From: Bacteroidota bacterium
GTDB lineage: Bacteria; Bacteroidota; Bacteroidia; UKL13-3
Length of the DNA: 64,000 nt
NCBI GenBank assembly: GCA_027484685.1
Contig: JAIXSO010000066.1
Location: forward strand, 785 to 64,784
Direction: 5' to 3'
Position numbers and translations under genes: made by a program. Below, in pieces: positions 19,884 to 62,971 of the stretch. Under the pieces are notes generated by a model. The model was not told the origin of the DNA. It did no database searches and saw only the letters and a program-made list of their open reading frames with translations. The stretch's first letter is position 1. Every line of letters starts with the position of its first letter.

Positions 19884-19986
19884 TCTAGTTTATAACTAAG
19901 TTTACCTCAAATTAACGTGAAAAAGTTTAAATATATTCACTCATAAAATATAAAGCAATATAAGTTATTTGGATAAATTTTAAAAA

Positions 19987-39764: not shown

Positions 39765-40328
39765 TTATTTTTTAGGTGCAACTGGAGGTGCAGCTTTTGG
39801 AGCAGGTGGCGCTTCAACAATTCCTAATTTCTTTTTTACCATGGCTGTAACATCATCGCCTTCTGGTTTGTAAAGCATTCCAGCTGTATTGCTATCAAAA
39901 ACATAAGCATAACCTGATTCTTTAGCTACTTGAGCAATTGCAGCTTTTGCTTTGTCAACTATCGGCTTTAATAATTCAGATTCTTTTTTACGACTGTCTT
40001 CTACAGCCGATTGTTGAAACTCTTGAATACGCTCTTGTAATTGGCGTAATTCTTTTTCTTTAAACTCGCGCATTGTAGGGCTCATAGTACCTTGATTTTT
40101 TTCATATTCTTTGTACTTAATTTGAAACTCTTCTTGTAATTTACCTAAATCATCTTCTAACTGTTTTTGGTATTTTTCCATATCAGCATTTGCTTTTTTA
40201 TACTCTGGCATTGCTACCATAACTTCTTGCAAATCTACATAACCTAATTTTTGAGCATTTGCTACAAATACTCCACCGCAAAGCGCAAATACCATTGCCA
40301 ATGCAAATTTTCTAATGATGCTTTTCAT
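39765..40328 (-). CDS. OmpH/Skp-family periplasmic chaperone
   Basis: 187 aa with a signal peptide. Coiled-coil OmpH fold. Ala/Pro-rich C-terminal tail. Confidence 0.85.
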   Translation of the reverse strand: MKSIIRKFALAMVFALCGGVFVANAQKLGYVDLQEVMVAMPEYKKANADMEKYQKQLEDDLGKLQEEFQIKYKEYEKNQGTMSPTMREFKEKELRQLQERIQEFQQSAVEDSRKKESELLKPIVDKAKAAIAQVAKESGYAYVFDSNTAGMLYKPEGDDVTAMVKKKLGIVEAPPAPKAAPPVAPKK

Positions 40329-40356
40329 TTCTGTTTATTATTTATTGTTTTTAAAA

Positions 40357-40941
40357 TTATCGTTTACCTCCACCCGTGTTTGGAGCCGGATTTTCAGGTT
40401 TTAATTGGTTTTTAGTTGGTTTATCAATTGCTATGCCAAGTTCTTTTAAAACTTCATCGCTCATATCGTATTTAGAATTGGTGTAAAGCATTACTACCTC
40501 GCCACCTTTAGCAAATATAAAGTCGTAAGCACGAGCTTTGGCCACTTTTTGAACTGCATCGTAAACTTTATCTTGAATAGGTTTTACCAATTCCTGACGT
40601 TTTTTAAACAATTCTCCTTCGTAACCAAACTTTTTATTTCTAAAATCTCTCAATTCATCTTGCTTAACTTTTAATTCTTCAGCGCGTTTCTTTTTCATTT
40701 CATCGCTCATTAAAATTTGCTCAGCATTAAACTCCTTTTCAGCCTTTTCAAGTTCTTGCATTTTACGCTCCATTTCTTTTTGCCAATCTTCGCTCATGGC
40801 ATCTAATTGCTTTTGGGCCGAACGATACTCAGGCAACAAATCTAAAATATACTCTGTATCTACATAAGCAAATTTTTGAGCATAAACTTTGCTAGCACCA
40901 AGTGTTAGCAAAACTGTAAACAAAACAAATATTTTTTTCAT
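40357..40941 (-). CDS. OmpH/Skp-family periplasmic chaperone (second paralogue)
   Basis: Start moved to the ATG that gives the signal peptide MKKIFVLFTVLLTLGASKVYAQ. Tandem skp paralogues downstream of bamA are typical of Bacteroidota. Confidence 0.85.
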   Translation of the reverse strand: MKKIFVLFTVLLTLGASKVYAQKFAYVDTEYILDLLPEYRSAQKQLDAMSEDWQKEMERKMQELEKAEKEFNAEQILMSDEMKKKRAEELKVKQDELRDFRNKKFGYEGELFKKRQELVKPIQDKVYDAVQKVAKARAYDFIFAKGGEVVMLYTNSKYDMSDEVLKELGIAIDKPTKNQLKPENPAPNTGGGKR

Positions 40942-40981
40942 AATAGCTAAAACAATTTTTAGTGTTTTTAGTATAATTTTT

Positions 40982-43486: not shown

Positions 43487-43590
43487 TTGTTTATAACGAA
43501 AATACAAGTGTTAAGTTACTTTATGCAACCTATTTCATGTTAAATTTTTATTGCTAAAACATTTACCACTTTCACTATTTCTCTATTTTT

Positions 43591-44337
43591 TTAGTTTGTA
43601 ATTAATTGTTCAGAGGTTTTTCCAAACCTTCTTTCTCTTTGCTGATAGTTTAAAATGGCTTCATACAAATCTTCCTCTTTAAAATCAGGCCAAAGTTTAT
43701 CGGTAAAATAAAACTCAGAATAAGCTAACTCCCATAACAAGAAATTACTCACCCTTTGTTCTCCACTGGTTCTAATCATTAATTCAGGATCAGGCACACC
43801 CTTAGTAGAAAGCTCATTATCAAGCATTTCAGAGGTTATATTATCAACCAATATGTCACCATTTTTTACTTTAGTAGCAATATTTTTAATGGCATTAACT
43901 ATATCCCACTTAGCGCTATAACTTAGCGCTAAAACCATAGTCAAACCTGTATTAGATTTAGTTGCGTCAATCGTTTCTTGTAATTGCAAATAGCATTTTT
44001 CAGGTAAATCTAAAGTGTTACCAATTGACATTAACCTGATATTGTTTTTTTGTAAAGTTGGTGTTTCCTTTTTAATGGTGTCAACCAATAACTCCATCAA
44101 ATCATCGACCTCTGTTTTTGGCCTATTCCAATTTTCGGTACTAAAAGCATAAAGCGTTAAATATTTAATACCAATTTCTGCTGCGGCTTCTACAGTAGTT
44201 TTTACTGCTTTTACACCATTATAATGCCCAAAAATTCGGAATTTACCAAATCCTTTAGCCCAACGGCCATTTCCATCCATAATGATGGCAATATGTTTTG
44301 GTAATTTAGTTGTATCTATTTGGTCTTTTTTTGACAT
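43591..44337 (-). CDS. uppS: Isoprenyl transferase (undecaprenyl diphosphate synthase)
   Basis: 248 aa with the cis-prenyltransferase motifs HIAIIMDGNGRWA and YAFSTENWNRP. Conserved uppS-bamA-skp synteny. Confidence 0.95.
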   Translation of the reverse strand: MSKKDQIDTTKLPKHIAIIMDGNGRWAKGFGKFRIFGHYNGVKAVKTTVEAAAEIGIKYLTLYAFSTENWNRPKTEVDDLMELLVDTIKKETPTLQKNNIRLMSIGNTLDLPEKCYLQLQETIDATKSNTGLTMVLALSYSAKWDIVNAIKNIATKVKNGDILVDNITSEMLDNELSTKGVPDPELMIRTSGEQRVSNFLLWELAYSEFYFTDKLWPDFKEEDLYEAILNYQQRERRFGKTSEQLITN

Positions 44338-45636: not shown

Positions 45637-48600
45637 TTATTGTCTAATTAAAGTAATTGAACCTCTTACGGTTTTTTCTTCGCCACCACGCAATTGGTAA
45701 GTGAACAAGTAGTAATAAGTTCCAGCAGGATTTTCAGCACCATCATTATTGGTTTTTCCGTTCCACATTTTTTCAGCGTTATCGCTTTCAAAAATAGTGT
45801 TACCCCATCTGTTCCAAACAATTAAACTATATTTTTTGTATCCAACAATTTCAATTTTGAACTCATCGTTCTTACCGTCACCATTTGGAGTAAATACATT
45901 TGGAATATTGATTTTACTCTTAGGTAAAATAACTTGAATTATTTTACAAACTGAATCAGGACAACTTTGTGTACCAGCCACATCAGCTATAATACACACA
46001 TTGAACGATCTTGAAGAATCAATATTAAAGGTTTGAATAAAGTCATTCAAATCGCTTGATTCATCGAAATCTTTAGGGAAACCTTCGTAAAGACTTCCAT
46101 CAGGATTGTAGATTTTCCAAGTGTATTTATCTGATATAACTGTATCAGAGGTATTAACCAATCTAAATCTAGCTTCGCCAGCTTCAGTGGCTGTAAAGTC
46201 TGCTTTTGATTTAGCAGCTACCATAGTAATTGTATCGTAATTAGCACAAGGAGAATACTTGTTATCAAACCTAGTTGAATTTAACACCAATTTATATTGT
46301 CCTACTGCATTAAATTTATACTGCCAACTTGTATCGGTAATATAATTTGTTTTCAGTAATGAATCTATTCTTGTACCAAAATTGGCATCAAATACATCCA
46401 TTCTATACCTAGTAATAGTATCTCGGTCTGAATTGTTAGTTAACCTAAACACTTCACCAACACAAACCGTATCCTTACTTGATAACATATTTACTTTATA
46501 AGGTACATTCACTGATATTATGATTGGTTTTTCAAAACCGTCCACTGTATCAGGGGTAAATACTGGTCTACATGCACTGGCACTTCCATCTTCTGTATTA
46601 TATGCTTCAGCACTTATATAATAAGTACCTGGTTGATCGTAAAAGAATACAGCAGTATCTATTCGAGAGTATTTAATAGGCACAAAATATTTATCTGGAC
46701 GACCAGAACGTATAATAGTTAATTTGGTTGGGGTATCAATGGTAGGGTCACTCCATGGTTCTCTTTCTGGAATACTAACAACTCTAACTCTATGCGGCAC
46801 ACAGCCTAAAGTATCATCTAAAATTACCAAATGAGGACGAGGACCAGCAATAAAGATATCTTTTAATGCAGTGTCAGTACATCCTTGTTCTGTATTAATG
46901 GCAATTCTAAGTGTATATTTACCATTTCTTCTGTAGTCATAAATAGGGTCTTTTAAAATAGACTGAGGCAATTTTGAGTTATAAACTTTATCACCAAACC
47001 ACCATTTCCAACCAGCAATTCTATCTAAAGTGTCTGAAACATCTGCATAATTTTGTAAAACTTGAGTTGAATCTTTGAATATAAATTTATCACCACAAGC
47101 ATAGTAATCTTTTGCATCAATTTTAGCTATTGGCTTCACTACATTCACATATTGAACACAAGTATCCCAACGTCCTGTACTATCAATAGAATACATAGAA
47201 ACCTTATATCTACCATATTTAGGATATTTATGGGTTACTGTAGAAACTTCATTTCCTGTAATTGGAGTATTTGGACGCAAATGATCAATTACACCATCAC
47301 TTTCAAAATCCCAATATACACGTTCGTAGAAATATGTTTTCTCTTTATAACAACGTGCCAGTGGAGTTCCTTGGTCATTATTGATTATAACAGGCGTTCT
47401 AGGATTAGCATTAGTTGTTCCGTATCCAGTTGGGCAAACGGTTAAGGTAGCAGGGAAAACTTTATAATCTGTGAAATCATAAATAGGCGTTGGTCTGATT
47501 GAATCAAGAGGATAATTTGTTCTGGTATATGCCCATTGGTGCATATTTCCTCGGTCATGATGCAATAAATCATTCTCTTGAGCTGGAATATTCAACGGAC
47601 GAGAACAATTGGTTGATGGATACCAATACCTAACAGAATCTCTAAAAAAGACTGTTTGACCTTCACAGAAAACAGTATCCAATTGGCCATCACCATTTAA
47701 TATGTCGAATGTATCAATTACACCAATAACAAGATTCGATTTAGCAAAACTTTGGCAACGTGAATAGGTATTGGTAACCATGATATGATTAACTTCTGTA
47801 ATGTCGCCTTTTCTTTCTAAATTTCCACTTCCACCAATTATCATTTGTTCAAATGAAGATTTATAGTACCTATGAGTAATTGGAGTAAACAATAAACTTG
47901 AATCCCTCACATTGATAGTAGTATCATATTTAGGAAATAATTTATTTACATCATCGCAAGCATATTTTATTTCAATAATAGTATCTTTTCTTAATCTAGT
48001 ACCAACATTAAAATATTCAGCATATTGGAATTCCCATGGCAGCGTTAAAGCATTAAAGTGGTATCTAATTCTATTATAAGGAATATCTTCACCAGGTTGG
48101 TAGTAGAACGAATCAACTGTAGCTGTTCCATCACCCCAATTCCAAATATCAGCGATTACATTGTCTTGTTGTTCTACTTTGTAATGAAATGTAACATCGT
48201 CTCCCTTACCTCTTAAATAACACATTGAATTTTTGTTATTAAAATCAACATTTTCATATGTAAAGTTTGCAGTAGTATATGCAGCCTCTAATTCAATGAA
48301 TCTAAAGAAATTATGATACCAAACTGTATCACTTATACAACCTGGCAAATTACAATTCGTTGGAGTTAAACAACCTGTTCCTACAATTAATCCAATAGTC
48401 ACAAATCCTTTTTTATCATAAGGCATATTAGTTGCACCAACTGGGCTGCCTCCATTTGGATAATAATAAACAAAGGTAGATCCGCCAGATGCGCTAGTCC
48501 AAGCTTGTGGAGGAGGATTGTAATTTGGGCTATTCCACATAGGAGGCATATTAGTACCACCTGGTGTTAAACCACCTCCAAAACCAACAAATTGATCCAA

Positions 48601-51591
48601 TACACAGGGGGTATTATCATGTCTGTCTAACAAGGAGTCATAATTTATTTGCAAGAAAGTCCTTGAACTACTTGGTAAGATACCTGGTGACTGAACAGAC
48701 CTTGTAGTGTCCATGTAACCATTTCTGTCAAAAATAATTTTAGCGGTACCACCAAACACCCCGTTGGTTCTTCCTGGACATATTCTTCCATCTTGTGCCA
48801 TACCATAAGCATCTGGACGGGTAAATGATAAAGTTACAGTGCTTGAAGCGCTACAATCCCAATCATCTAACATCAAAGAATCAAAAACTATTGAATCTTT
48901 CATTGTTTTAGTAAATGGATCATAAACTTTTAATGTATCAGGCTTTGTTTTTACCAATCGGTAATCAGGATCAGCGGAAATATTATTCAATGAATCCTTT
49001 TCTTTTAAAGTAACAGTAATATCTTGGATTACTTGACGTTTGAATGCATATTCATACAATGTAGTTGGTGGTGTTAAACCAGGGATAATATCATTACCTT
49101 TATAACGTCTTAGACGTTTATCATTAGCGATAGTTAAATTTACGTTCAGTAATCCCGTATCAATTCTAGTTCCAGCTGGAATCAAATCCATCCAATTACC
49201 CCTTGCAGCAGAAATAGGATCTGGAATACCTCTATTTAAAGTAATTACTGTATTAGGATTAATATCTGGAGGCCAAATATTTAACATCGTATCTAAGCGA
49301 GTAGGTGTAGGACCAACTGCTAAAACAGGTTTATTCCAAGTTAAGGTATCACTAGGATGAACCCAATTCATACCAACAGGTGGTGGACCAGATGGAGGCC
49401 AACTAGTATAATTTTTTGACCATCTGGTGGTATCATAAGGTGGAAAATCATGACCATATTTATTCCAAATTAATACCTTATCCCAATTTACATATTGATG
49501 TGTTGGAAGTGTATCATGAGAGAAATTACAACCATTGAATCTTCCTAGATAGTTGCGTCCGTTGGCAACAAAAGCTCCAATAGTCCTGTTTTGTAAATCT
49601 GCAGCGTCAGAGTAAGGCTCTAAACCACCATTAGCTGCTGAAGGATTTGGAATAGAATATGAAGTACAAGCAGGTGCATACGATTGTTCACCAAAATCCC
49701 AATTTATCCATAACCTATCAGATTGATAAGTTAATGTATTATTTGTAAATTGAACAGGGAATGACGGTCCACATTGTAATTTTTGCCACTGAACTATTTC
49801 TCTAGGAGGACCTGGAGGTGGGGGATTTTCAATCCTAGCATCTGGACCTAAAATATTTACACCTAATGCAATTAAATCATGGTTTAGTGCTGAGGACACA
49901 GGATTACAATATTCCTTATTAAAAGGTACAGTTATTAATGTGCTTGTAAAAGGATTTCTAAAAGTAATATTTGTAGTGGTGGTGTATTTATTAACACAAT
50001 CAAATGAACCATTATTAAAGAAATCCCAATTTGAACTCATTGAATCTGACCAACCAATATGACGGGCAGTTACACTTAATATTAATGTTGGATCAACAGG
50101 ACTAACAGCCGTATCATAAGCATACTCTGAAATTTTTCCATTGTAATTATAATATTGCGGATTAGCTGGAGTATTAGGAGTTAGTAATCTACCATTTCTA
50201 GTATAAAGAATTGGATTAACTATATAACTGTTTTGATTAGAAGCCGTTCCATTGGGTATAAAATAATCTTGGTATTGATATCTATTTTTGTCTTTTGGCA
50301 GTGTATCTATCCTTGAATAAAAAGTATATGTTTTAGGAAGTGCTCCAGGACAAACTACCGTTAATGTAGGGAAAAACTGACCTAAGCCTTTGTATTTATA
50401 AGTAGGCTGATCAACACTTGGAAAAATATAATTAGTAGCATTAGGTTCATATGGATCGTTAAAACTCCATACAAAATTAAGTTTAGTTCCACCTTTTCCA
50501 GCAAGTTCCCCATTGTTATAAAGGGTTACAGCAGCCTCACCCGGTTTTTTAAAGCAAACTGAGTCTGCTATCGAGTCATTTTGAATATCACGTTTAGTTA
50601 ATAATTCAATTTGATAAATAATATTTTCAGGTAATTGTAAACCCGTAGATTTATAATAGAATGTATCTGCACACCTTTGGGTTTGCACTATTAAATATGG
50701 ATAAAAAACATTATTATCATAATATGTATGAATAAATGGCCTTGTCCATATATTTAAATCACTTGTAACAGTATTTGGTGGACCTTTCTCATATTTTTTA
50801 CCATCACCAAAATCAAATATAAATTTTGTTACTGCTGAAAAGCCTAATGGAGTGGTATTGGTAAAAATATATCTCGAACTATCACATCTTGGTGAACCAG
50901 TAATAGTAAAGCTCGGTTTTAAATCAGGGGCAATTGAAATAGCTCTCGCACTTAAAGCGTCAATTAGAGGATCGGTAGTACAACCAACCGAATCTGTTAC
51001 TTTTAAACCAACATTGAACGAAGGATTACTAATAGCATATTTATGGCAAACCAAACGTGCATTGGTATCGGTTTGGGTTAAGGCATTACCATCCCCAAAA
51101 GTCCATTCATATCTAACCAAAGGCGCTGTACCTTGTTTTGATGTATTGGTAAAACAATACTCATTATTTTTAAAACATTGGGTATCTCTACTCGCCATTA
51201 CAAACTTGGTAGTTGGTCTTTCCCAAATTTTACGTTGTTTGGTTACCACAATGTCTGGACCATTGGTTCTTTTTACAATAACGGTTACAGTGTAAATGCC
51301 ACCGTTCATGTATGTTTTTAAAAAATTGGGACTTGGTGCTTGAGTTACAATTCTGTTATTTACCGCAGTATCATTAGGTATACCCCAACGAATGGTATAC
51401 GAAATTACATCTGCAGGAGCAATACCTGGAGTAATATTAACCGTGGTTAAATCCACTCCTGCACAAGGATTTGCGGGGGACATTGTAAAATCAGCTTGGG
51501 CTTTAGCCATTACTGACACAAACAATAGAAAGACCAAAACAGCACTCTGCCTCAGTTTTCGTGTTGATAGTTTAAAGTACATATATTTCAT
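45637..51591 (-). CDS. Giant (1984 aa) secreted cell-surface protein with T9SS type B (gliding-motility-associated) C-terminal domain
   Basis: Signal peptide, then about 1850 aa of beta-rich PKD/Ig-like repeats with many Cys pairs. The C-terminus IPNVFTPNGDGKNDEFKI...WNRWGNTIFE...WNGK...GTYYYLF is the hallmark of the type B sorting domain. Confidence 0.9.
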   Translation of the reverse strand: MKYMYFKLSTRKLRQSAVLVFLLFVSVMAKAQADFTMSPANPCAGVDLTTVNITPGIAPADVISYTIRWGIPNDTAVNNRIVTQAPSPNFLKTYMNGGIYTVTVIVKRTNGPDIVVTKQRKIWERPTTKFVMASRDTQCFKNNEYCFTNTSKQGTAPLVRYEWTFGDGNALTQTDTNARLVCHKYAISNPSFNVGLKVTDSVGCTTDPLIDALSARAISIAPDLKPSFTITGSPRCDSSRYIFTNTTPLGFSAVTKFIFDFGDGKKYEKGPPNTVTSDLNIWTRPFIHTYYDNNVFYPYLIVQTQRCADTFYYKSTGLQLPENIIYQIELLTKRDIQNDSIADSVCFKKPGEAAVTLYNNGELAGKGGTKLNFVWSFNDPYEPNATNYIFPSVDQPTYKYKGLGQFFPTLTVVCPGALPKTYTFYSRIDTLPKDKNRYQYQDYFIPNGTASNQNSYIVNPILYTRNGRLLTPNTPANPQYYNYNGKISEYAYDTAVSPVDPTLILSVTARHIGWSDSMSSNWDFFNNGSFDCVNKYTTTTNITFRNPFTSTLITVPFNKEYCNPVSSALNHDLIALGVNILGPDARIENPPPPGPPREIVQWQKLQCGPSFPVQFTNNTLTYQSDRLWINWDFGEQSYAPACTSYSIPNPSAANGGLEPYSDAADLQNRTIGAFVANGRNYLGRFNGCNFSHDTLPTHQYVNWDKVLIWNKYGHDFPPYDTTRWSKNYTSWPPSGPPPVGMNWVHPSDTLTWNKPVLAVGPTPTRLDTMLNIWPPDINPNTVITLNRGIPDPISAARGNWMDLIPAGTRIDTGLLNVNLTIANDKRLRRYKGNDIIPGLTPPTTLYEYAFKRQVIQDITVTLKEKDSLNNISADPDYRLVKTKPDTLKVYDPFTKTMKDSIVFDSLMLDDWDCSASSTVTLSFTRPDAYGMAQDGRICPGRTNGVFGGTAKIIFDRNGYMDTTRSVQSPGILPSSSRTFLQINYDSLLDRHDNTPCVLDQFVGFGGGLTPGGTNMPPMWNSPNYNPPPQAWTSASGGSTFVYYYPNGGSPVGATNMPYDKKGFVTIGLIVGTGCLTPTNCNLPGCISDTVWYHNFFRFIELEAAYTTANFTYENVDFNNKNSMCYLRGKGDDVTFHYKVEQQDNVIADIWNWGDGTATVDSFYYQPGEDIPYNRIRYHFNALTLPWEFQYAEYFNVGTRLRKDTIIEIKYACDDVNKLFPKYDTTINVRDSSLLFTPITHRYYKSSFEQMIIGGSGNLERKGDITEVNHIMVTNTYSRCQSFAKSNLVIGVIDTFDILNGDGQLDTVFCEGQTVFFRDSVRYWYPSTNCSRPLNIPAQENDLLHHDRGNMHQWAYTRTNYPLDSIRPTPIYDFTDYKVFPATLTVCPTGYGTTNANPRTPVIINNDQGTPLARCYKEKTYFYERVYWDFESDGVIDHLRPNTPITGNEVSTVTHKYPKYGRYKVSMYSIDSTGRWDTCVQYVNVVKPIAKIDAKDYYACGDKFIFKDSTQVLQNYADVSDTLDRIAGWKWWFGDKVYNSKLPQSILKDPIYDYRRNGKYTLRIAINTEQGCTDTALKDIFIAGPRPHLVILDDTLGCVPHRVRVVSIPEREPWSDPTIDTPTKLTIIRSGRPDKYFVPIKYSRIDTAVFFYDQPGTYYISAEAYNTEDGSASACRPVFTPDTVDGFEKPIIISVNVPYKVNMLSSKDTVCVGEVFRLTNNSDRDTITRYRMDVFDANFGTRIDSLLKTNYITDTSWQYKFNAVGQYKLVLNSTRFDNKYSPCANYDTITMVAAKSKADFTATEAGEARFRLVNTSDTVISDKYTWKIYNPDGSLYEGFPKDFDESSDLNDFIQTFNIDSSRSFNVCIIADVAGTQSCPDSVCKIIQVILPKSKINIPNVFTPNGDGKNDEFKIEIVGYKKYSLIVWNRWGNTIFESDNAEKMWNGKTNNDGAENPAGTYYYLFTYQLRGGEEKTVRGSITLIRQ

Positions 51592-51657: not shown

Positions 51658-52557
51658 TTAACGTATGAGTTTTATTTTGGTCATTTTGGTTTGCAATTTT
51701 TCACTATTCATAAATTTAAAATTCAAAACACCATAGTAAATACCACTATTACAAGCTTGTCCAGTTTTTTGACTTATACCATCCCAAGTAAAATTTTTAT
51801 CATTACTTTCAAAAACCAACTCATTGTTAAAATTGTAAATTTTTAAGTTAAATACCTTTTCGCCTTCAATTTCTATTACATACCTATCATTTGAGCCATC
51901 ACCATTTGGCGTTAATACATTAGGTATTTTAATATGTGATGATACATTTTTGTCTGTTTCGGTTGCTTCGGCATTATTTTCTGTATTTTCAATTGAATCA
52001 ATTTTATCATCCAAATCAATCTCAGGTATGGTTGGATTTGAAACTATTTCATTAACAACTTCGGGAGTAGAAGTATGTTCAAGATTTCTATTTGATAACC
52101 CTTCTTGCTGTTTATTCTCCACATTTAACTTATGCTCAATAAAGTTATCATTAATATAAGCCTCTTGGGTTTTAATTAAATTATTAGAACCATACTTTTC
52201 TTTATTTGTAAAAGTTTCTTTTGGCTTATTAGTTATATGTGTTTTGTCAAAACTAATTTCTGGAGAATTTACTTCAATTGGTACTTTTAATTCTGCAACT
52301 TTTGATTCGCTTTCAATATTTTCTTTTTTACTATTTTTTGTATAAAAATAAGTTGCTATTGAGGAAGGAATGGCCAAAATAGCTGCTACCTTAATTACAG
52401 TTAAAGCCACTTTACTTATAACAACTTTTCCTGCCACAGCACTGCTTTGCGCAGCAGCATTGGCTTGCACACCTTGCTCAATACCCACCCAAACGTTTGG
52501 CGCATCAGGAGCAAAATTTTGCATTTGTTGTTTTAATATTTCGTCTAAATTACTCAA
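51658..52557 (-). CDS. Anti-sigma-factor-like single-pass membrane protein carrying a T9SS type B C-terminal domain
   Basis: 299 aa. A ~45-aa cytoplasmic N-terminus, one TM helix (VVISKVALTVIKVAAILAIPSSIATYFY), an Asn/Glu/Lys-rich linker of about 140 aa, then IPNVLTPNGDGSNDRYVIEIEGEKVFNLKIYNFNNELVFE...WDGI...GIYYGVL, a type B CTD. The gene overlaps the stop of the ECF sigma gene by 4 bp. The start is either the TTG at 52557 or the ATG at 52524. Confidence 0.75.
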   Translation of the reverse strand: MSNLDEILKQQMQNFAPDAPNVWVGIEQGVQANAAAQSSAVAGKVVISKVALTVIKVAAILAIPSSIATYFYTKNSKKENIESESKVAELKVPIEVNSPEISFDKTHITNKPKETFTNKEKYGSNNLIKTQEAYINDNFIEHKLNVENKQQEGLSNRNLEHTSTPEVVNEIVSNPTIPEIDLDDKIDSIENTENNAEATETDKNVSSHIKIPNVLTPNGDGSNDRYVIEIEGEKVFNLKIYNFNNELVFESNDKNFTWDGISQKTGQACNSGIYYGVLNFKFMNSEKLQTKMTKIKLIR

Positions 52558-53090
52558 TTTTTTCTTTTATTATATTCTTTTAAAAAAGCAGCTCTTGCTC
52601 TTGCAAGTTGACTTTTTGATGTTCCTTCGTTTATTTGAAGCATTTCTGCAATTTCTGCATGCGAATATCCTTCAATGGCATATAAGTTTAAAACCGTTCT
52701 ATATCCTAAAGCTAATTTTTGCATGGTTTCCATAATTTCTTTTTGACTAATTTTATCTATTGTAAAATTATCAAAAACTAAATCATACTCATCAGCTATA
52801 TCAGTGATTTCAGTATAAAATTTATTTACCCTAATATTCTCTAAAGCACAATTAACAAAAATTCTCCTCATCCATGCTTCAATTACTCCTTTGCCTTCAA
52901 ATTGTTTTATTTTACTAAAAACCCTAATATAACCTTCTTGTAAAGTATCTCTAGCATCTTCAGGATTTTTACAATACCTTAAGCAGATACCATACATTTG
53001 TTTTGATGTAAATTCATACAATTGTTTTTGGGCTCGCGCCTCACCTTGTATGCATTTATCTATCAATTCTTGGCTTATGTTTTGGCTCAC
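52554..53090 (-). CDS. RNA polymerase sigma-70 factor, ECF subfamily
   Basis: 178 aa. A sigma-70 region 2 (DTLQEGYIRVF) and a region 4 helix-turn-helix (YSHAEIAEMLQINEGTSKSQLARAR). Apparent GTG start. Confidence 0.9.
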   Translation of the reverse strand: MSQNISQELIDKCIQGEARAQKQLYEFTSKQMYGICLRYCKNPEDARDTLQEGYIRVFSKIKQFEGKGVIEAWMRRIFVNCALENIRVNKFYTEITDIADEYDLVFDNFTIDKISQKEIMETMQKLALGYRTVLNLYAIEGYSHAEIAEMLQINEGTSKSQLARARAAFLKEYNKRKN

Positions 53091-53217: not shown

Positions 53218-56007
53218 TTGTTTATTTTGCAAAACTTGTCTGCTAAAAATATACATATCATTATTTTAACATTTTTGCTTTTAAGCTCACTGCCAAAATT
53301 ATATTCTCAAATAAGTGACCTTAGCGAAAACACAAATAACAGCATTTACTTTACCGAAAACAAAGGACAGTGGGATAATGACATAAAATTTAAATTTTGG
53401 AATGCCAATAACCATATTTTATTTAATCAAAACAACATTGGTTATTATTTTTTAAATGAAAACCAAGTGGCTCATGAAAACCAACATTTAAAAAAAGATA
53501 AGTTTAAAAATAATTCAATTGATGGGCATTTTATAACACTAAAATTTGTAAGTGCTAACGAAAATCCTAACATAATTTCGAATGGTAAACCTGCTCCTTT
53601 TTACAAAAATTTTTTTTTAGGCAGTAAACCTCAAAAATGGCAATCTAAAGTGCAATCGTTCACTCAAATAACTTACCAAAACTTATATAAACATATTGAT
53701 TTAAAAATTTCAGCTAAAAACAACTCCACTTTAAAATACGATTGGATTATAAAACCAATGGGAAATTTAGAAAACATAAAACTTGATTTTAAAGGGGCCG
53801 ATTCCGTTTATATTCAATACAACGAATTGTATATTGCGCATAGCCAAGGCATTTTAAAAGAACAAAAACCATTTGCGTACCAAATAATTAATGGCAAGCA
53901 AGTAAGAGTTGATGTTATTTACTGCATCACTAATAAAATAATTAGTTTCAAATCAAATAATTACAATAAAAACTACGATTTAATTATAGACCCAGATTTA
54001 ATTTTTAGCACTTACAGCGGTGCTACTGATGATAATTTTGGTTTTACAGCAACTTACGATAGTGAAGGAAATTTATTTTCGGGAGGGGTAAGTGGTGATG
54101 CTTTTGCAGGTAAATATCCTGTAACGCCAGGTGCATTTCAATTAACTTATAAAGGTGGCAATCAAGAAGCACCAGTAAATTTGGCTTGCGACATTACCAT
54201 AAGCAAATACAGCAGCGATGGTAAACAACTGATTTATGCTACTTATTTAGGCGGCTCAAAAAACGAATATCCGCACAGTTTGGTAGCCGACAATAACGAC
54301 AATTTGGTAATAATGGGAACCAGCAAATCAATTGATTTTCCGATGAGTTCTGACTCATACGATAATTCGCAAAATGGAGATATTGACATAATTGTAACCA
54401 AATTAAGCAAAGATGGAACTACACTGCTAGGCTCTACTTTTATTGGCGGTTTAGGCAGTGATGGACTGAATATAAAACCGTTTTTAAATACCTTTTATGC
54501 CGATGAATTTAGGGGAGACGTTACTATTGATAAGCAAAACAATATTATAGTTGGCAGTTGCAGTTTTTCAACCGATTTTCCTTTTACATCAGGTTCGTTT
54601 GGTGCATCCATTCCAAGTGCTATTCAAAAAGGAGTGGTTTTTAAACTTTCACCTACTTGCAATAATTTGCTATTTAGTGCTGCCATGCCAAGTAATAGCG
54701 AAGATGTTATTTACAGCGTTGACTTGAACCAAACTGACGATATTTTTATAGCGGGAACTACTACAGGCAATATGCAAATTCCAACTGCGACAAATTCATT
54801 TATAGGAGGAAATTCTGATGGTTTTTTTGCTAAAATAAAGTTTGATGGTTCGACTATTTTAAAAGCAAAATATTTTGGCACTACTCAAAACGACCAAGTG
54901 TTTAGTTTAGAATTAGACAATAATGAGGACATTTATATTGTTGGAAATTCGTTGGGCAATATTGCACCGATTGGAAATGTATATTCAGTTGCCAATGGAA
55001 AACAATTTATTAGCAAAATAAACAACGATTTTAGTACCATTAATTTTATAAGCACTTTTGGGCGAGGAGCGGCAGATGTTGATTTAAGTATAAACGCATT
55101 TTTGCTAGATGACTGCGGACGTTTATACATTAGTGGTTGGGGCTGCAACGACTCTCGATTTGGTCTTGGAGGAAATACACAGGGATTGCCAATTACCAAT
55201 GATGCATTTCAAAAAACTACCGATGGCAACGACTTTTATTTAATGGTGTTAGGCCAAAATGCTGAAAAAATATTGTATGCCACATTTTTTGGAGGAAATA
55301 GCTCACCTGACCATGTAGATGGAGGCACGAGTAGGTTTGACAAAAGGGGTTATATTTACCAATCAGTTTGTGCAAGTTGCCCAGCCAATGGCAACTTTTT
55401 AAGTGATTTTCCAACTAATACCGATGCAGTTTTTAAAACAAATGTGAGTCCGCGTTGCAGCAATGCAGCTTTTAAAATGTCGTTTAGGTTTAAAGAAGCT
55501 GCCATTGAAATGAATATAGATACTTGCGCCAAAACAGTTACACTTGGAACACCAACCGAAAATGCATTGAATTATTTATGGTTACTGCCAAACGGAAAAA
55601 CTAGTGTTTTAAAAAACCCAACTGTAACCATTGATGAAATAAACAATAAAGAGGTAGTGTTAATTTTAAATGCGAATACCAATTGTGCCGACACTGCCAA
55701 ACAAACCTTAAGCTTTAACGAATTATTTAATAAGGTGGATTTTAGTAATGCCTTTACACCAAACAACGATGGTGCAAACGATATGTTCTTTATTGATGGC
55801 ATTAGCCAATGTGGTGAATATGAATTAACCATTTTTAACCGGTGGGGGCAAGAAATATATAAAACCACTTCAAATCAACCCAAATGGGATGGAAAAACAA
55901 GTAATGGACAAGATGCGTTAGCGGGCGTTTATTATTATTTAGGTTATTATAAAAAACAAAATGAGCCCGAAGTAAAACTCCATGGAACAGTTACTTTAAT
56001 TAGGTAA
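53218..56007 (+). CDS. Secreted beta-propeller (SBBP-repeat-like) protein with T9SS type B C-terminal domain
   Basis: 929 aa. Signal peptide. Repeated YATYLGGS.../FIGG.../YFGT... beta-propeller repeats. The C-terminus FSNAFTPNNDGANDMFFIDGI...ELTIFNRWGQEIY...WDGK...GVYYYL is a type B CTD. Apparent TTG start. Confidence 0.85.
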   Translation: MFILQNLSAKNIHIIILTFLLLSSLPKLYSQISDLSENTNNSIYFTENKGQWDNDIKFKFWNANNHILFNQNNIGYYFLNENQVAHENQHLKKDKFKNNSIDGHFITLKFVSANENPNIISNGKPAPFYKNFFLGSKPQKWQSKVQSFTQITYQNLYKHIDLKISAKNNSTLKYDWIIKPMGNLENIKLDFKGADSVYIQYNELYIAHSQGILKEQKPFAYQIINGKQVRVDVIYCITNKIISFKSNNYNKNYDLIIDPDLIFSTYSGATDDNFGFTATYDSEGNLFSGGVSGDAFAGKYPVTPGAFQLTYKGGNQEAPVNLACDITISKYSSDGKQLIYATYLGGSKNEYPHSLVADNNDNLVIMGTSKSIDFPMSSDSYDNSQNGDIDIIVTKLSKDGTTLLGSTFIGGLGSDGLNIKPFLNTFYADEFRGDVTIDKQNNIIVGSCSFSTDFPFTSGSFGASIPSAIQKGVVFKLSPTCNNLLFSAAMPSNSEDVIYSVDLNQTDDIFIAGTTTGNMQIPTATNSFIGGNSDGFFAKIKFDGSTILKAKYFGTTQNDQVFSLELDNNEDIYIVGNSLGNIAPIGNVYSVANGKQFISKINNDFSTINFISTFGRGAADVDLSINAFLLDDCGRLYISGWGCNDSRFGLGGNTQGLPITNDAFQKTTDGNDFYLMVLGQNAEKILYATFFGGNSSPDHVDGGTSRFDKRGYIYQSVCASCPANGNFLSDFPTNTDAVFKTNVSPRCSNAAFKMSFRFKEAAIEMNIDTCAKTVTLGTPTENALNYLWLLPNGKTSVLKNPTVTIDEINNKEVVLILNANTNCADTAKQTLSFNELFNKVDFSNAFTPNNDGANDMFFIDGISQCGEYELTIFNRWGQEIYKTTSNQPKWDGKTSNGQDALAGVYYYLGYYKKQNEPEVKLHGTVTLIR

Positions 56008-56056: not shown

Positions 56057-56869
56057 TTGAAGCTCCTTTTAAAAATAGTACTACTGATAATTGCATTTCA
56101 AAAAGTGAATGCGCAAATAGTGCATGACCCAATTGGCGCTAGGGCTTGGAGTTTAGGAGGAAGCAGTACTGCGGAAAGTAATGTATTTGCTATAAACAAC
56201 AATATGGCTAGCTCGGCCGAGTTAAAGCAATACCAAATTGGTATTTATAATCAAACTCGTTTCAGTATAAAAGAGCTTAATTTAATTAATTCAAGCATAT
56301 TAATTCCTACAAAACTATTTCATGTTGGAGCAAGTATAAACCACTTTGGTTACGATAAATACAACCAACAAAACATCAGCTTAGGAATTGCAAAAAAACT
56401 TAACAACAATTTTAACTTAGGTATTACGCTTAATTACCTTACCATTAACATTGCAGAGCAGGAAAATACAGGCGCTTTAACTGGAAGCTTAAGTGCCTTT
56501 TATAAAATTAATAAAAACTTGCAACTGGGTGTTTTATTATTCAATCCAACTTTAAGCAATTACTCAATTAATGGTTATGGAAAAATAAATACTTTTGGAA
56601 GAATTGGTGTAAAATACCAAGTAAACAAAAGCGTATATTTAATTGGCGATTTAGATAAAACACTAGAACAAGAAACCATTTTGAGAGGTGGTATTAATTA
56701 TGCTCTTCACCCCAATTTTGACTTAAGTTTAGGATATGCCAATAACCCTAATTATTTAACTTTTGGGTTTAATGCTAAAATAAAACAAATGGACTTGGCC
56801 TTTGCTGCTAGCATTCATGAAATATTGGGTTTTACACCACATATTGGTTTGATATTTTATGGCAAATAA
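56057..56869 (+). CDS. T9SS-associated outer-membrane beta-barrel protein (PorQ/PorV/PorP-SprF-like)
   Basis: 270 aa with a signal peptide. The N-terminal motif GARAWSLGGSSTAESNVFAINNNMA is of the FadL/PorV/PorQ type ('GARA.GMGGA....D.SA...NPA'). The beta-strand periodicity is barrel-like. It sits directly downstream of a type-B-CTD gene, as PorP/SprF-like genes usually do. Apparent TTG start. Confidence 0.55.
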   Translation: MKLLLKIVLLIIAFQKVNAQIVHDPIGARAWSLGGSSTAESNVFAINNNMASSAELKQYQIGIYNQTRFSIKELNLINSSILIPTKLFHVGASINHFGYDKYNQQNISLGIAKKLNNNFNLGITLNYLTINIAEQENTGALTGSLSAFYKINKNLQLGVLLFNPTLSNYSINGYGKINTFGRIGVKYQVNKSVYLIGDLDKTLEQETILRGGINYALHPNFDLSLGYANNPNYLTFGFNAKIKQMDLAFAASIHEILGFTPHIGLIFYGK

Positions 56870-58949
56870 AAGGTTTGTTTTTATAAAATTTTTAGGTGCT
56901 TTGGCAATGGTATTTTATAGCAAAATATTGTTAGCGCAAAAATTGCAAAGCAAAACCGAAATTATTTCAACCATTATTGAAAAATTAGTTGAAAACACAG
57001 AATCTACGATAGATTACACCGATTTGCAAGCCCAACTTGAATACTTGTACGACAATAAAATCAACCTGAACAAAGCGACCGATAATGAATTAAGGCAACT
57101 TATTTTTTTGAAACAAACCGATATTTTAAGCATTTTAAAACACCAAAAACTATACGGTAATTTTGAAAGTATTTATGAGCTGCAAGCCATTGATAATTTA
57201 AGTGACGAAAGCATTTATTTTTTAAAGCATTTTGTAAGTATAAATGAAGGTAACAAGCAACTAAAATTAAGCGAAATAAAACAAGTTGGCAAAACCGAAA
57301 TTGTACTACAACATGAAAACGATTTTCAGCAACGGTTAGGTTATAAAACAGATGAACTAAAAGCACAAAACAAACAATATTATTTAGGTTCGCCCTACCG
57401 ATATGTGGTAAGAGCTAAACAAAAATTAGGGAAAAATATTGACTTAGGATTTACTGCTGAAAAAGATGCTGGTGAACAGTTTTTTGAAGGTGAACAAAGG
57501 AATGGTTTTGATTTTTATTCAGCACATATTCATATAAAAAATGTGTGGCGTTTTAGCCAAATAATTATTGGCGATTACCAAGCTAATTTTGGGCAAGGAC
57601 TGACCTTTGGTAGTGGACTTTCTGCTCGAAAATCGGCTTTTGTGTTGAATGTAAATAGGTATTTTCAAAATATAAGGCCTTACCGAAGTGTAAACGAATT
57701 TGAGTTTATGCGCGGAGCTGCCATAAACTATCAATATAAAAATTGGACCATAATTGGTTTTGTATCAAGCAAAAAAATAAACACCAATTTTCAAACTGCC
57801 GATACCAACCAAATAAACACTTTTGATGGTTTTACAGGTTTTAATGTAACAGGCTTTCACCGCACGGCCAATGAAATTGCTGATAAAGAAAATGTAAATC
57901 AAACCATTTTAGGAATTCATATACAACATGATTTTAAATTTTTACAAGTAGGATTTACAGGAATAAAAACCAATTACAGCAGTCCATTTTTACCTAGCAA
58001 TGCCTTGTACCAAAAATATAATTTTACCGGAACACAACTTATAAATGCTGGTGTAGATTATAAATTAGCCTTAGGAAATGCTTTGTTAAGTGGCGAATTT
58101 TCGAGTAGCGATAATGGTGCATTTGCCACTACTCACTCACTTTTAATTGCTTTAGATAATAAACTAGACCTTTGTTTATTATACAGAAATTTTGATAAAA
58201 ATTACCAAGTAACTTATAATAATCCATTTGCCGAAAACAGCGATGGGAGAAATGAAACAGGATTTTATTTTGGCATAAGTTATAAACCTAAAAAAGCTTT
58301 GGTATTTAATCAATACATCGATTTTTATCAATCAAAATGGCTGCGTTTTTTGGTAGACGCACCAAGTAAAGGATATGATGTTTTGAATGAAATACAGTAC
58401 AATCCTTCCAAAAATTTAAATATGTATGTGAGGTATAGATTTGAAAGCAAAGAAAAAAATGAAATTAATAATAATGAAGCACTTAACGATGTATTGGCAG
58501 TGCAAGAAAAACAGCAATTTAGATTTCATATCAAGTACAAATTGAGCCTTTTGTTAGAAGCTGAAACAAGGTTAGAACAATCATTTTTTACTACAAAAAA
58601 TATTTCGCCTAGCAATGGAACTTTAATTTACCAAGATTTAAAATTCAAAAGTAATGGGGGCAAATGGACTTTCACCACTCGATTAGCACTATTTAGTATT
58701 AACGATTACAATGCAAGAATTTATGCTTATGAAGATAATTTGCCTTATACTTTTAGCGTACCTTTATATCAAAATAGTGGCAGCAGATTTTACCTAATGG
58801 CTAAATACCAAATAAATAAAAAAGTAAAACTTTTTGCGCGTTATGCGCAAACCAAATACAATAATGTAAACATCATTGGCAGCGGATTAGAGCAAATTAA
58901 TGGAAACACCCAAAGCGATTTAAGTATACAATTACAAGTAAGTTTTTAA
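56859..58949 (+). CDS. Outer-membrane beta-barrel protein with N-terminal ComEA-like tandem helix-hairpin-helix domain
   Basis: 696 aa. Signal peptide. Two HhH motifs (LNKATDNELRQLIFLKQTDILSILK and GNFESIYELQAIDNLSDESIYFLK). About 550 aa of amphipathic beta-strands rich in Y/F/N/G, ending in a C-terminal Phe (QLQVSF). It overlaps the upstream gene by 11 bp. Confidence 0.7.
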   Translation: MANKRFVFIKFLGALAMVFYSKILLAQKLQSKTEIISTIIEKLVENTESTIDYTDLQAQLEYLYDNKINLNKATDNELRQLIFLKQTDILSILKHQKLYGNFESIYELQAIDNLSDESIYFLKHFVSINEGNKQLKLSEIKQVGKTEIVLQHENDFQQRLGYKTDELKAQNKQYYLGSPYRYVVRAKQKLGKNIDLGFTAEKDAGEQFFEGEQRNGFDFYSAHIHIKNVWRFSQIIIGDYQANFGQGLTFGSGLSARKSAFVLNVNRYFQNIRPYRSVNEFEFMRGAAINYQYKNWTIIGFVSSKKINTNFQTADTNQINTFDGFTGFNVTGFHRTANEIADKENVNQTILGIHIQHDFKFLQVGFTGIKTNYSSPFLPSNALYQKYNFTGTQLINAGVDYKLALGNALLSGEFSSSDNGAFATTHSLLIALDNKLDLCLLYRNFDKNYQVTYNNPFAENSDGRNETGFYFGISYKPKKALVFNQYIDFYQSKWLRFLVDAPSKGYDVLNEIQYNPSKNLNMYVRYRFESKEKNEINNNEALNDVLAVQEKQQFRFHIKYKLSLLLEAETRLEQSFFTTKNISPSNGTLIYQDLKFKSNGGKWTFTTRLALFSINDYNARIYAYEDNLPYTFSVPLYQNSGSRFYLMAKYQINKKVKLFARYAQTKYNNVNIIGSGLEQINGNTQSDLSIQLQVSF

Positions 58950-58960
58950 AAAGAAAAAAC

Positions 58961-59266
58961 ATGACAGAAGAACAATACAATGCCATTACAACTTGGCAAA
59001 ATAATACATTTACGCAGGCCACTGCACTTTCAAAAATTGTGCATTTAAGGCAAGAAATAGAAGAACTAGCAGATGATGTAAAAAACAATAATCCAAACCA
59101 AAACTTAGAGTTTGCAGATTGTTTTATATTGCTTTTTGGCGCAGCTAATTCGGCTGGAATGAGTTATCAAAATATTATTGATGCCATTAACCAAAAAATG
59201 GAAATTAACTACCAACGCAAATGGGGTAAACCCAATGAAGACGGGGTTGTTAACCATGTAAAGTAA
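58961..59266 (+). CDS. MazG-like nucleotide pyrophosphohydrolase domain protein (DUF550-like)
   Basis: 101 aa. All-alpha MazG-like EExxE/D region (RQEIEELADD ... EFADCFILLF). Confidence 0.55.
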   Translation: MTEEQYNAITTWQNNTFTQATALSKIVHLRQEIEELADDVKNNNPNQNLEFADCFILLFGAANSAGMSYQNIIDAINQKMEINYQRKWGKPNEDGVVNHVK

Positions 59267-61050: not shown

Positions 61051-61551
61051 TTACCACGCTTTAGATTCTTGGCTCCAAAACTCTACCCTTACTCCAGCAC
61101 TAACTACATTAGCCAACACTTCATCGCGCATGTTTTGCTCTAAACTAAAAGTATAAATTCCTTTTTGTTTAAATTTGATACGTGGTTTGTATTGCAATTG
61201 GTATTCGTAAATATCACCTAAACCTTTTCCAAACCATTTTCCCCGCTCATCTTGTAAAGTAAATTCCATTCTTTCTTTCTGAGTGGTTTTATCGGGCAAG
61301 GTTTCAGTAACCCACATAAATAAATTGCTGTATTTGTAATCACCTGTAATACGCAAGTTTATGTACATATTGCAATACTTAGTGGTATCAGCAATATTTA
61401 CATCAAACACCACCGGATTTTTATAATCCCAATTATGTTCGGTTATGTCTTTGTTTTCTTCAAAAATGGGTGGCTCAGCACACGATTGAAAATAAAAAAC
61501 TACATACAACAATGCAATTATTGAAAAAACAGATTTACTCTTTCTTATCAT
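61051..61551 (-). CDS. gldH: Gliding motility lipoprotein GldH
   Basis: 166 aa. Lipoprotein signal with a Cys in FYFQSCAEP. The size, and the position immediately downstream of the PSP1/RicT-like gene and of holB, match the gldH locus described in Flavobacterium. Confidence 0.7.
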   Translation of the reverse strand: MIRKSKSVFSIIALLYVVFYFQSCAEPPIFEENKDITEHNWDYKNPVVFDVNIADTTKYCNMYINLRITGDYKYSNLFMWVTETLPDKTTQKERMEFTLQDERGKWFGKGLGDIYEYQLQYKPRIKFKQKGIYTFSLEQNMRDEVLANVVSAGVRVEFWSQESKAW

Positions 61552-62971
61552 TGGGTTTTGGTGTATTTGGTCGGTTATTGTTATTGCGGTTTTTATTAAA
61601 CCTTGGCTTATTATTTTGTGGCTTTTCGCCTCCTTCAGCTACCGGTTTATTGTTGTTATTTGGTACTCTTTCCTCGGCAGGTTTATTAGGGTTGTTGGGC
61701 CTATTGGGTTGCTGAGGTTTTGGATTATTATTTACCGGTTTTGCATTGTTGTTATTGTTAACAGGCCTTGGTTGTTGAGGTCGGTTATTATTTACATTTT
61801 GCGGCTTACCTTCTGCATTGGCATTGCGGTTAGCATTATTTCGGTTATTATTTTTATTGCGGTTATTGTTATTACGCTTTCTATCTTTATCATCTAAACG
61901 GGTAAGGCTATCCATTCCCATATCGTTTTTAAAGTCAAGCTCAACTACTTTTTTAGGTTCGGCTTTAGGTTTTATAACCAATTCTGGTTTAACACCATCT
62001 TTATTTAAGGCCAAATATTCGTTTACTTTATCTACCCCAAGTTCAATCCACTCTCCAGCTATTTCGCCCATTGGCGCAAAAAATAATACACGTTTTAAAA
62101 TATCTGTTTTAACTTGTCGGTAACGTACATCACCCGCAAATTCCAATATGTTATTTTCTTTATCAGGAAAATCTTTTAGTGATTCTTGGTAAACATCTAA
62201 CTCAAAATTTAAGCAGCATTTTAATTTACCGCATTGGCCAGAAAGTTTAAGTTGATTAATAGATAAATTTTGGTAACGCGCGGCATTGATATGAACCATT
62301 TTAAAATCGGTAAGCCAAGTACTGCAACACAACTCGCGGCCACAGCTACCAATAGCACCAAGCCTACCTGCTTCTTGGCGGTAACCAATTTGTTTCATTT
62401 CAATCCTTACTTTGAACTCATCGGCTAATTTTTTTATCAACTCTCTAAAATCTACACGATCTTCGGCTGTATAATAAAAAGTAGCTTTACGTCTATCGCC
62501 TTGGTATTCCACATCGCTTAGTTTCATGTTTAACCCCAACTGCAATGCATGTGTTCTGGCTTTAAACATGGTTGGAATTTCTAATTCCTTGTTTTCTTTT
62601 TGCCTGGCAATGTCGGCCTCATTAGCTCTGCGCAACACACGTTTAATATGCTCGCTTTCGGGCGAAAGTCCTGCTTTTTTAAGCTGAAGTTTTACCAACT
62701 CGCCTTTTAAATTTACTTTACCAATATCGTAACCATTTTCCAATTCAACCACTACCAAATCGCCATTGGTTATATCTAAATTATTGGTATTGCGATAATA
62801 TTCTTTACGTGTACCTTTAAAACTAACTTCTACTACATTAAATAATTGAGTGTTAGGCGGCATTACTAACTCGCTTAACCAATCGTAAGTATTTAATTTA
62901 TTGCACCCTCCGGTGCTACACCCTCCGCTTGAGCAACCACCGGTGCTGCATCCTCCGCTTGAACATCCCAT
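61535..62971 (-). CDS. PSP1 C-terminal domain protein (RicT/YaaT-like) with N-terminal Cys/Gly pentapeptide repeat and Asn/Pro/Lys-rich C-terminal tail
   Basis: 478 aa. The N-terminus is MGCSSGGCSTGGCSSGGCSTGGC. The conserved PSP1 core carries Cys clusters (GSCGRELCCSTW, GQCGKLKCC). The C-terminal 130 aa are a low-complexity N/P/K/R-rich tail. Confidence 0.8.
   Translation of the reverse strand: MGCSSGGCSTGGCSSGGCSTGGCNKLNTYDWLSELVMPPNTQLFNVVEVSFKGTRKEYYRNTNNLDITNGDLVVVELENGYDIGKVNLKGELVKLQLKKAGLSPESEHIKRVLRRANEADIARQKENKELEIPTMFKARTHALQLGLNMKLSDVEYQGDRRKATFYYTAEDRVDFRELIKKLADEFKVRIEMKQIGYRQEAGRLGAIGSCGRELCCSTWLTDFKMVHINAARYQNLSINQLKLSGQCGKLKCCLNFELDVYQESLKDFPDKENNILEFAGDVRYRQVKTDILKRVLFFAPMGEIAGEWIELGVDKVNEYLALNKDGVKPELVIKPKAEPKKVVELDFKNDMGMDSLTRLDDKDRKRNNNNRNKNNNRNNANRNANAEGKPQNVNNNRPQQPRPVNNNNNAKPVNNNPKPQQPNRPNNPNKPAEERVPNNNNKPVAEGGEKPQNNKPRFNKNRNNNNRPNTPKPNDKKE

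Follow-up and report, generated by a model that had tools for sequence, protein, structure and literature searches.

A widespread Bacteroidota gene pair encoding a predicted 26-strand outer-membrane barrel with a degenerate ComEA-type domain and a PorV/FadL-like partner barrel

OVERVIEW

Two overlapping genes for outer-membrane proteins were examined in a stretch of 64,000 nucleotides (the window: contig JAIXSO010000066.1 of assembly GCA_027484685.1, positions 785 to 64,784, forward strand) from an uncultured freshwater Bacteroidia genome. The downstream gene, called here the target, encodes a 696-aa protein in which a signal peptide, a pair of acidic helices and a helix-hairpin-helix (HhH) domain of ComEA ancestry precede a large beta-barrel with 26 predicted strands. 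The upstream gene, called the partner, encodes a 270-aa barrel of 14 strands that belongs with PorV, PorQ and FadL. The pair spans thousands of lineages with uniform architecture, the window's copy being one ordinary member. The explanation that we prefer, tentatively and at a little under even chances, is that the two proteins form one outer-membrane complex, a 26-strand conduit with a lateral partner on the principle of SprA-PorV and a periplasmic module for docking or gating. Full-text literature searches returned no study of this architecture and no characterised member.

FAMILY AND GENE COUPLING

A profile search of 1.84 billion representatives, clustered at 50% identity, assigned 4347 clusters to the target family at E<=1e-30. 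Lengths of the top 150 all fall within 650-740 aa, and their matches run from end to end. Judged by these more than 4000 relatives, the target is a real gene and not a chance open reading frame (ORF). For the comparisons below, 70 related loci (29-94% identity) were gathered from a genome-contig scan, a metagenome scan with alignment, and contig look-ups; the genome-contig scan with the single protein gave 12 close relatives at 71-94% identity. The closest loci (92-94%) are contigs of metagenome-assembled genomes (MAGs). Cluster look-ups yielded almost no names; all named relatives are likewise MAGs, assigned to Bacteroidia, Bacteroidales, Marinilabiliales or Bacteroidota, and the taxonomic spread rests on these MAG labels. 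Three loci at 81-94% identity (L005, L006 and L012) are labelled inconsistently, as 'Chitinophaga pinensis', 'uncultured Bifidobacterium sp.' and 'Candidatus Methylacidiphilales', probably through binning or labelling errors.

Wherever the upstream sequence sufficed, in 61 of 61 loci, the target is directly preceded on its own strand by a partner homologue, over barrel identities of 29-94%. The two genes overlap by 11 nt in 24 loci, relatives of only ~34-37% identity included, and by 4 nt in 12, while in nearly all others the junction is at most +6 nt. Because the upstream partner is constant and the junctions are overlapping or tight, the two genes are taken to be a fixed, apparently translationally coupled, stoichiometric pair. 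No gene other than the partner is conserved beside the target across clades. A scan for promoters and terminators, whose models do not cover Bacteroidota promoters, yielded no excess of sites over shuffled sequence, and co-transcription of the pair and its neighbours is suggested only by their spacing. Table 1 lists the features of the pair and its flanking genes.

Table 1. Coordinates of the gene pair, its parts and the adjacent genes within the window
Feature	Coordinates	Strand	Remarks
929-aa type IX secretion system (T9SS) cargo	53218..56007	+	DUF7948, beta-propeller repeats, CHU_C sorting domain of type B; lies upstream of partner, gap 49 nt; lineage-specific
Partner gene, 270-aa outer-membrane protein	56057..56869	+	ORF; signal peptide (…VNA|Q), N-terminal hatch-like segment, 14-strand barrel
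Target gene, 696 aa	56859..58949	+	ORF, ATG start; N-terminal ComEA-type domain, then 26-strand barrel
Overlap (11 nt) of partner stop codon and target ATG	56859..56869	+	ATGGCAAATAA; likely site of translational coupling
Signal peptide, residues 1-27 of target	56859..56939	+	MANKRFVFIKFLGALAMVFYSKILLAQ; read from sequence; predicted helix 4-25
Acidic helical pair, residues 30-65	56946..57053	+	Motif E-x-L-I-E-N-x-E-x-x-x-D-Y-T-D-L-Q-x-Q-L-E
ComEA-type (HhH)2 domain, residues 66-126	57054..57236	+	Degenerate hairpins; HHH_3; ComEA, EEPD1 and TEFM matches
Predicted 26-strand beta-barrel, residues 143-696	57285..58946	+	Terminal Phe; DSSP of AlphaFold2 model; Foldseek
Most conserved barrel part, strand 3 through loop L3, residues 197-286	57447..57716	+	G-D-Y-Q-A-N-F-G-Q-G-L-T-F-G-S-G…N-E-x-E-F-x-R-G
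101-aa MazG-like dATP/dGTP pyrophosphohydrolase	58961..59266	+	PF04447 E=1.8e-16; 11 nt downstream of target; lineage-specific

THE N-TERMINAL DOMAIN

The signal-peptide-like N-terminus of the target ends in LLAQ, and a crude test finds an N-terminal hydrophobic stretch in 293 of 406 family members. The acidic pair that follows is modelled as helices 32-46 and 53-65; its net charge is -6 in the target and -8 on average over the 406 members, and E41 and D52 are at least 95% conserved.

The next segment derives from a ComEA-type fold. Pfam HHH_3 matches residues 66-126 of the full-length target at E=1.1e-5, with 25.9 bits against a gathering cutoff of 27; the isolated N-domain scores 30.2 bits and exceeds that cutoff, and all 20 family N-domains scored are matched (best E=1.6e-12). 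The comEA model TIGR01259 matches 45 of 45 full-length members weakly (best E=3.3e-8), the target's 24.6 bits falling below the ComEA family threshold of 152.35. Searched against the PDB, a family profile of the N-domain finds EEPD1 (2.2e-9) and the ComEA structures 8dss (2.3e-5) and 8dfk (1.6e-3), and also TEFM and Tex. Residues 66-126 are thus homologous to the tandem HhH of ComEA, and the core common to both consists of an N-x-N-x-A cap, a conserved Gly before helix 3, and an E-L motif; the residues invariant in the family N-domain (N71, G100, E107 and L108) belong to the structural core of the fold.

The hairpins themselves have diverged. In HMMER alignments to the solved ComEA chains, LPGIG and TGIG of ComEA fall opposite L-I-F-L-K and I-D-N-L-S of the target, which lacks the canonical Gly-hydrophobic-Gly hairpin pair that makes the DNA-phosphate contacts in ComEA. 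The four hairpin glycines are kept in 0, 1, 195 and 1 of the 406 members, and the target keeps none of the four: both hairpin-1 glycines are gone from essentially the whole family and the second of hairpin 2 from 405 members, and the first of hairpin 2 survives in about half. After each hairpin, Asp/Glu or Gln predominate and Lys/Arg are rare, and these positions include sites that are Lys in the two solved ComEA chains. ComEA differs also in being a small soluble or membrane-anchored protein, whereas the target domain is fused to a 26-strand outer-membrane barrel with acidic helices in front.

Since the hairpin glycines have been lost, acidic or neutral residues replace the lysines, and an acidic pair precedes the domain, classical binding of the DNA phosphate backbone is unlikely, and a role in protein contact, docking or gating is more likely. 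The net charge of the HhH region gives no argument against DNA binding, because the aligned ComEA fragments too are slightly acidic (-1 and -2; the family averages -2.6).

THE LARGE BARREL

An AlphaFold2 model of the target, built on 45 homologues (predicted local distance difference test, pLDDT, 76; predicted template-modelling score, pTM, 0.64), has 26 long beta strands downstream of residue 143. In it, short turns lead from even to odd strands, which would therefore put the N-domain and the C-terminus both on the periplasmic side. With a signal peptide, an even strand number, short periplasmic turns and a C-terminal aromatic residue (...QLQVSF; a terminal Phe is found in 307 of the 406 members), the target fits the general class of outer-membrane beta-barrels. 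Foldseek against the PDB gave 417 matches at E<=0.001, the top 50 of which are all outer-membrane or designed transmembrane barrels. The best is MtrB (E=4.6e-11), and BtuB and other TonB-dependent transporters, FimD/PapC and AlgE are among the matches. The TM-scores against known large barrels are just 0.26-0.39, and no specific barrel family therefore fits the target. By sequence, the barrel part has no match in Pfam, in NCBIfam or in the PDB, the last searched both with the protein and with the family profile.

In MtrB, LptD, TonB-dependent transporters and chaperone-usher ushers, a plug or partner sits inside a wide barrel, and the target resembles none of them in sequence or in type of partner. 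MtrB (26 strands, sheathing MtrA) is alike in class and size, with no sequence similarity and a different type of partner. LptD (26 strands, plugged by LptE) is also alike in class and size, whereas the target has no sequence similarity to it and no beta-jellyroll; LptD identity was rejected, its defining domains being absent from the Pfam and NCBIfam scans. TonB-dependent transporters and ushers are of similar class and size, whereas the target has neither plug nor usher domains. The TonB-dependent transporter was rejected as a candidate on the target's 26 strands and on Pfam and NCBIfam scans in which Plug, TonB_dep_Rec, CarboxypepD_reg and DUF5689 gave no match at E<=1.

Conservation is highest from strand 3 through loop L3, where a dense run of residues at least 95% conserved among the 406 members lies within residues 197-286. 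Mean column conservation reaches 0.71 in L2, 0.63 in L3 and 0.71 in L8, against 0.41-0.55 for most strands, and strand parity puts these loops on the extracellular side. The surface-exposed loops of outer-membrane proteins are normally their least conserved part. Since L2, L3 and L8 are conserved beyond most strands, they probably fold into the lumen of the modelled barrel as a constriction or binding site. The AlphaFold2 model has low confidence in the stretch of residues 197-286.

THE PARTNER

The AlphaFold2 model of the partner (pLDDT 80.7) has 14 strands and a hatch-like N-terminal segment at residues 20-58. In Foldseek its best TM-score is to PorV (chain 6h3i_F of SprA-PorV; TMq 0.75, root-mean-square deviation 5.1 Å) and its best E-values are to FadL and TodX (~1e-8). 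The PorV_fam model NF033709 gives the window partner 36.1 bits against a curated cutoff of 90; among 31 diverse partner orthologues it matches 30 at E<0.01 (best 7.1e-22), all under that cutoff. The NCBIfam models for this family are NF033709, NF033710 and NF033711, and of the 31 orthologues sixteen match the PorQ model and 11 the PorV model. The partner is therefore a remote homologue with the fold of the PorV/PorQ/FadL superfamily, outside the curated PorV, PorQ and PorP families. Membership of PorP/SprF was rejected: PF11751 matches one of the 31 orthologues (E=0.0024) and not the window partner, and type B cargo is adjacent in one clade only. A word-index search with the partner returned close relatives only, all named 'hypothetical'.

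The sequence-only reading of this region had proposed an HhH motif at the N-terminus of a large outer-membrane barrel ending in Phe and overlapping a PorQ-like gene. Each of these holds: the Pfam run finds the motif, model and fold matches agree on the barrel, and the overlapping gene is PorV/PorQ-like at the level of superfamily and fold. Checks for an N-terminus that fails to score as HhH and for a soluble beta-sandwich in the C-terminal part found neither. The label 'ComEA-like' is right for fold and homology and does not extend to the DNA-contacting hairpins, which are degenerate.

NEIGHBOURING GENES

The genes around the pair change from clade to clade. An extracytoplasmic function (ECF) sigma gene, a CHU_C membrane protein, the 929-aa cargo and the MazG-like gene are confined to the window's own clade, the last being found downstream in 11 places, all inside the close clade. 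A gene with a C-terminal domain (CTD) of type B for T9SS sorting lies directly upstream of the pair in 16 of 16 places in the clade of at least 70% identity (15 loci and the window, all with enough upstream sequence), and in 0 of more than 40 loci under 51% identity. A clade at 43-50% identity has a divergent H+-pyrophosphatase gene as neighbour (17 loci).

Sixteen loci of a Bacteroidales/Marinilabiliales-type clade have purE next to the small barrel gene, abutting or overlapping it (-4 to +64 nt; -4 nt in 8 loci). These purE-linked loci (L039, L041, L042, L046-L048, L050-L053, L055, L056, L058-L060 and L063) span three subclades whose barrels are just 36-45% identical. They show an apparent purE-partner-barrel operon with hpt and adk upstream or purH, ksgA and mreBC downstream, and MscS nearby. 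Neither the window nor four of the purE-linked loci gave an Rfam match to a riboswitch or any other RNA. Neighbours in other clades are hpt, pdxJ, a SAM hydroxide adenosyltransferase and aminotransferases; pdxJ (pyridoxal phosphate biosynthesis) stands immediately 3' of the large barrel gene in L043/L044 and in L057, which belong to two clades with barrels ~32% identical.

Upstream of the cargo, the gene of a 299-aa protein (51658-52557, -) overlaps the ECF sigma-factor gene (52554-53090, -) by 4 nt, the usual position of an anti-sigma gene. The protein has one hydrophobic segment (~residues 44-72) and ends in a CHU_C type B sorting domain (E=1.7e-15), and the two genes are kept together in the close clade (42-83% identity). 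A membrane protein that carries a T9SS sorting domain in the anti-sigma position is unusual. It is one of three type B (CHU_C) T9SS proteins within 11 kb, at 45637-51591 (-), 51658-52557 (-) and 53218-56007 (+).

A CANDIDATE TWO-BARREL COMPLEX

If target and partner do act as one complex, the 26-strand barrel would be a wide conduit for a bulky substrate, and the conserved loops inside its lumen would serve as constriction or binding site. The 14-strand barrel might be a lateral partner or adaptor, by analogy with PorV on SprA, and the acidic helices and HhH-like domain in the periplasm would dock or gate and would not act as a classical DNA clamp. SprA-PorV (6h3i), too, joins a FadL-type barrel of 14 strands to a large barrel in the outer membrane, and PorV is the partner's best match by TM-score. 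It differs in scale, SprA having 36 strands and ~2400 aa where the target has 26 and 696, and SprA is not among the target's top fold matches. The PorV chain comprises 345 residues against ~250 mature residues in the partner, which scores under the family cutoffs. SprA-PorV also belongs to the T9SS, whereas outside one clade the pair is not consistently linked with T9SS genes. In Bacteroidota, 14-strand barrels of the FadL family are known to act as partner subunits (PMC9143113). Several outer-membrane machines of this phylum put a FadL-type barrel in the service of a larger barrel, among them SprA-PorV and the PorP- and PorQ-type anchors, and the pair looks like another.

As to what might pass through such a conduit, the ComEA ancestry of the domain and, independently of it, the recurring nucleotide-metabolism neighbours (purE, hpt, adk, purH and the MazG-like gene) hint at nucleotides or pieces of nucleic acid. 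The occurrence of purine and nucleotide genes in separate clades points weakly to acquisition of nucleotides or nucleic-acid fragments.

Several points weigh against the two-barrel complex or its suggested substrate. Conserved gene order and overlap indicate co-expression and not contact between the barrels. The strand count depends on a single AlphaFold2 model with the pTM noted above and TM-scores of at most 0.39, and L3 and L4 are of low confidence in that model. Even with degenerate hairpins, the HhH domain could bind nucleic acid via other surfaces. The nucleotide-metabolism neighbours could also be there by chance in housekeeping regions, other clades carrying pdxJ or aminotransferases instead.

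A bolder version, which we consider unlikely, makes the pair an unrecognised, widespread Bacteroidota translocon of the outer membrane, built on the SprA-PorV principle and independent of both T9SS and TonB, with a PorV-like barrel gating or serving the 26-strand conduit. Its ComEA-derived domain would handle an anionic polymer or nucleotide-containing substrate, and the purE-partner-barrel operon of one large clade would tie it to purine economy. If the pair is a conduit of either kind, it would be a further way in or out through the outer membrane of Bacteroidota, and a fixed two-gene unit is a clean target for genetics and complex structure prediction.

ALTERNATIVE EXPLANATIONS

The sequence-only reading had suggested nucleic-acid uptake or binding, and its strongest form would have a working, sequence-independent DNA binder of the ComEA kind at the periplasmic mouth of the barrel, with target and partner importing DNA or oligonucleotides for transformation or nutrition. 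The N-domain is genuinely homologous to the HhH domains of ComEA, part of the family keeps one hairpin glycine, and EEPD1, the best PDB match of the N-domain, likewise has G-x-[T/S/N] hairpins. The modelled 26-strand lumen would be wide enough for a polymer, and nucleotide-metabolism genes recur beside the pair: purE, tightly linked, in the 16 loci of three subclades, hpt, adk and purH nearby, and the MazG-like gene in the window clade. These neighbours lend the idea weak support, and the hairpins, the acidic residues after them and the strongly acidic helices fused directly upstream speak against it. Soluble ComEA is proposed to work as a multi-copy ratchet, a role that a single tethered domain cannot serve. 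A link to competence genes had also been raised and finds no backing, as comEC, comF and dprA are absent from the window and from the loci whose neighbours were scanned. The outer-membrane DNA transporter with genetic evidence in Bacteroidota belongs to another family: DdbC/RA0C_RS04915 is a TonB-dependent transporter with a DUF5689 lid, DdbD/RA0C_RS04920, and serves DNA metabolism and natural transformation (PMC12478041, PMC8459023). DdbC-DdbD is, like the pair, a two-gene Bacteroidota outer-membrane unit, and the DNA movement proposed for it is the role once given to the target. DdbC, however, joins a carboxypeptidase-regulatory-like domain to a 22-strand TonB-dependent barrel under a surface DUF5689 lid, whereas the second member of our pair is a barrel and not a lid lipoprotein. 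Because the hairpins are degenerate and the genetically supported transporter is of a different family, DNA uptake is rated low, as a doubtful account of the pair.

The cargo gene beside the pair brings in the T9SS. Here the 929-aa type B cargo would have the small barrel as its PorP/PorV-like anchor or shuttle, and the large barrel would complete a cargo-specific unit for surface attachment or secretion. In F. johnsoniae, type B cargo has a cognate PorP-like barrel to which it binds (PMC9143113), and the order of genes in the window resembles the cargo/porP-like/porE-like arrangement described there, with the target sitting where porE-like genes often sit. The partner falls within the PorV/PorQ superfamily, and all 16 places of the window clade preserve the order of type B cargo, 14-strand barrel and second envelope gene, at gaps of 22-86 nt. 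The genome carries gliding and T9SS genes (GldH), and scans of the genes around the three type B CTD genes in the window gave no PorP_SprF match; the 270-aa partner is the one FadL-type barrel in their vicinity. Against this, the more than 40 loci under 51% identity have housekeeping neighbours where the cargo would be. PorP_SprF matches a single partner of the 31, and weakly, and the PorV_fam scores stay under the curated cutoff. The Pfam scan found no PorE-like domains in the large barrel, on which ground a PorE-like identity of the target was rejected. Adjacency of cargo and pair by chance is easy, and fairly often to be expected, because there are five T9SS cargo genes in the 64-kb window. 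The earlier suggestion that the target is co-expressed with a T9SS cargo island is for these reasons weakened, the adjacency being confined to the clade of at least 70% identity, and a T9SS accessory role seems to us improbable.

Equally improbable in our judgement is a housekeeping function of the envelope apart from nucleic acids and the T9SS, such as transport or insertion of a lipidated or hydrophobic component, with the FadL-type partner opening a lateral path to the membrane and the HhH-like domain making protein contacts only. It would suit the very wide distribution, the uniform architecture and the housekeeping neighbourhoods, as well as the presence of uppS-bamA-ompH-ompH and gldH nearby in the window. 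The degenerate hairpins, with hydrophobic Phe/Leu at hairpin 1, are suited to protein contact, and weak TEFM and PsbU matches suggest uses of the fold other than DNA binding. On the other side, nothing points specifically to a lipid, lipopolysaccharide or lipoprotein pathway, and the loci compared encode no conserved periplasmic or inner-membrane partner nearby. Nor did the Pfam, NCBIfam and PDB searches show sequence similarity of the target to LptD, BamA or other biogenesis barrels.

OTHER FEATURES OF THE WINDOW

The uppS-bamA-ompH-ompH genes (39765-44337, -) form an ordinary envelope-biogenesis cluster ~12 kb upstream of the pair. Downstream of the pair, a 478-aa PSP1-domain protein (61535-62971, -) has an N-terminal Cys-Gly repeat, MGCSSGGCSTGGCSSGGCSTGGC, and a low-complexity tail of ~130 residues rich in Asn, Pro and Lys; the gldH-PSP1-holB arrangement around it is kept in related loci. 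A 620-aa ORF (18021-19883, -) with no Pfam match at E<=1e-5 lies in the window's lowest-GC stretch (GC 0.247 at 18001-20000, against ~0.33 elsewhere in the window) and may be a foreign or fast-evolving gene.

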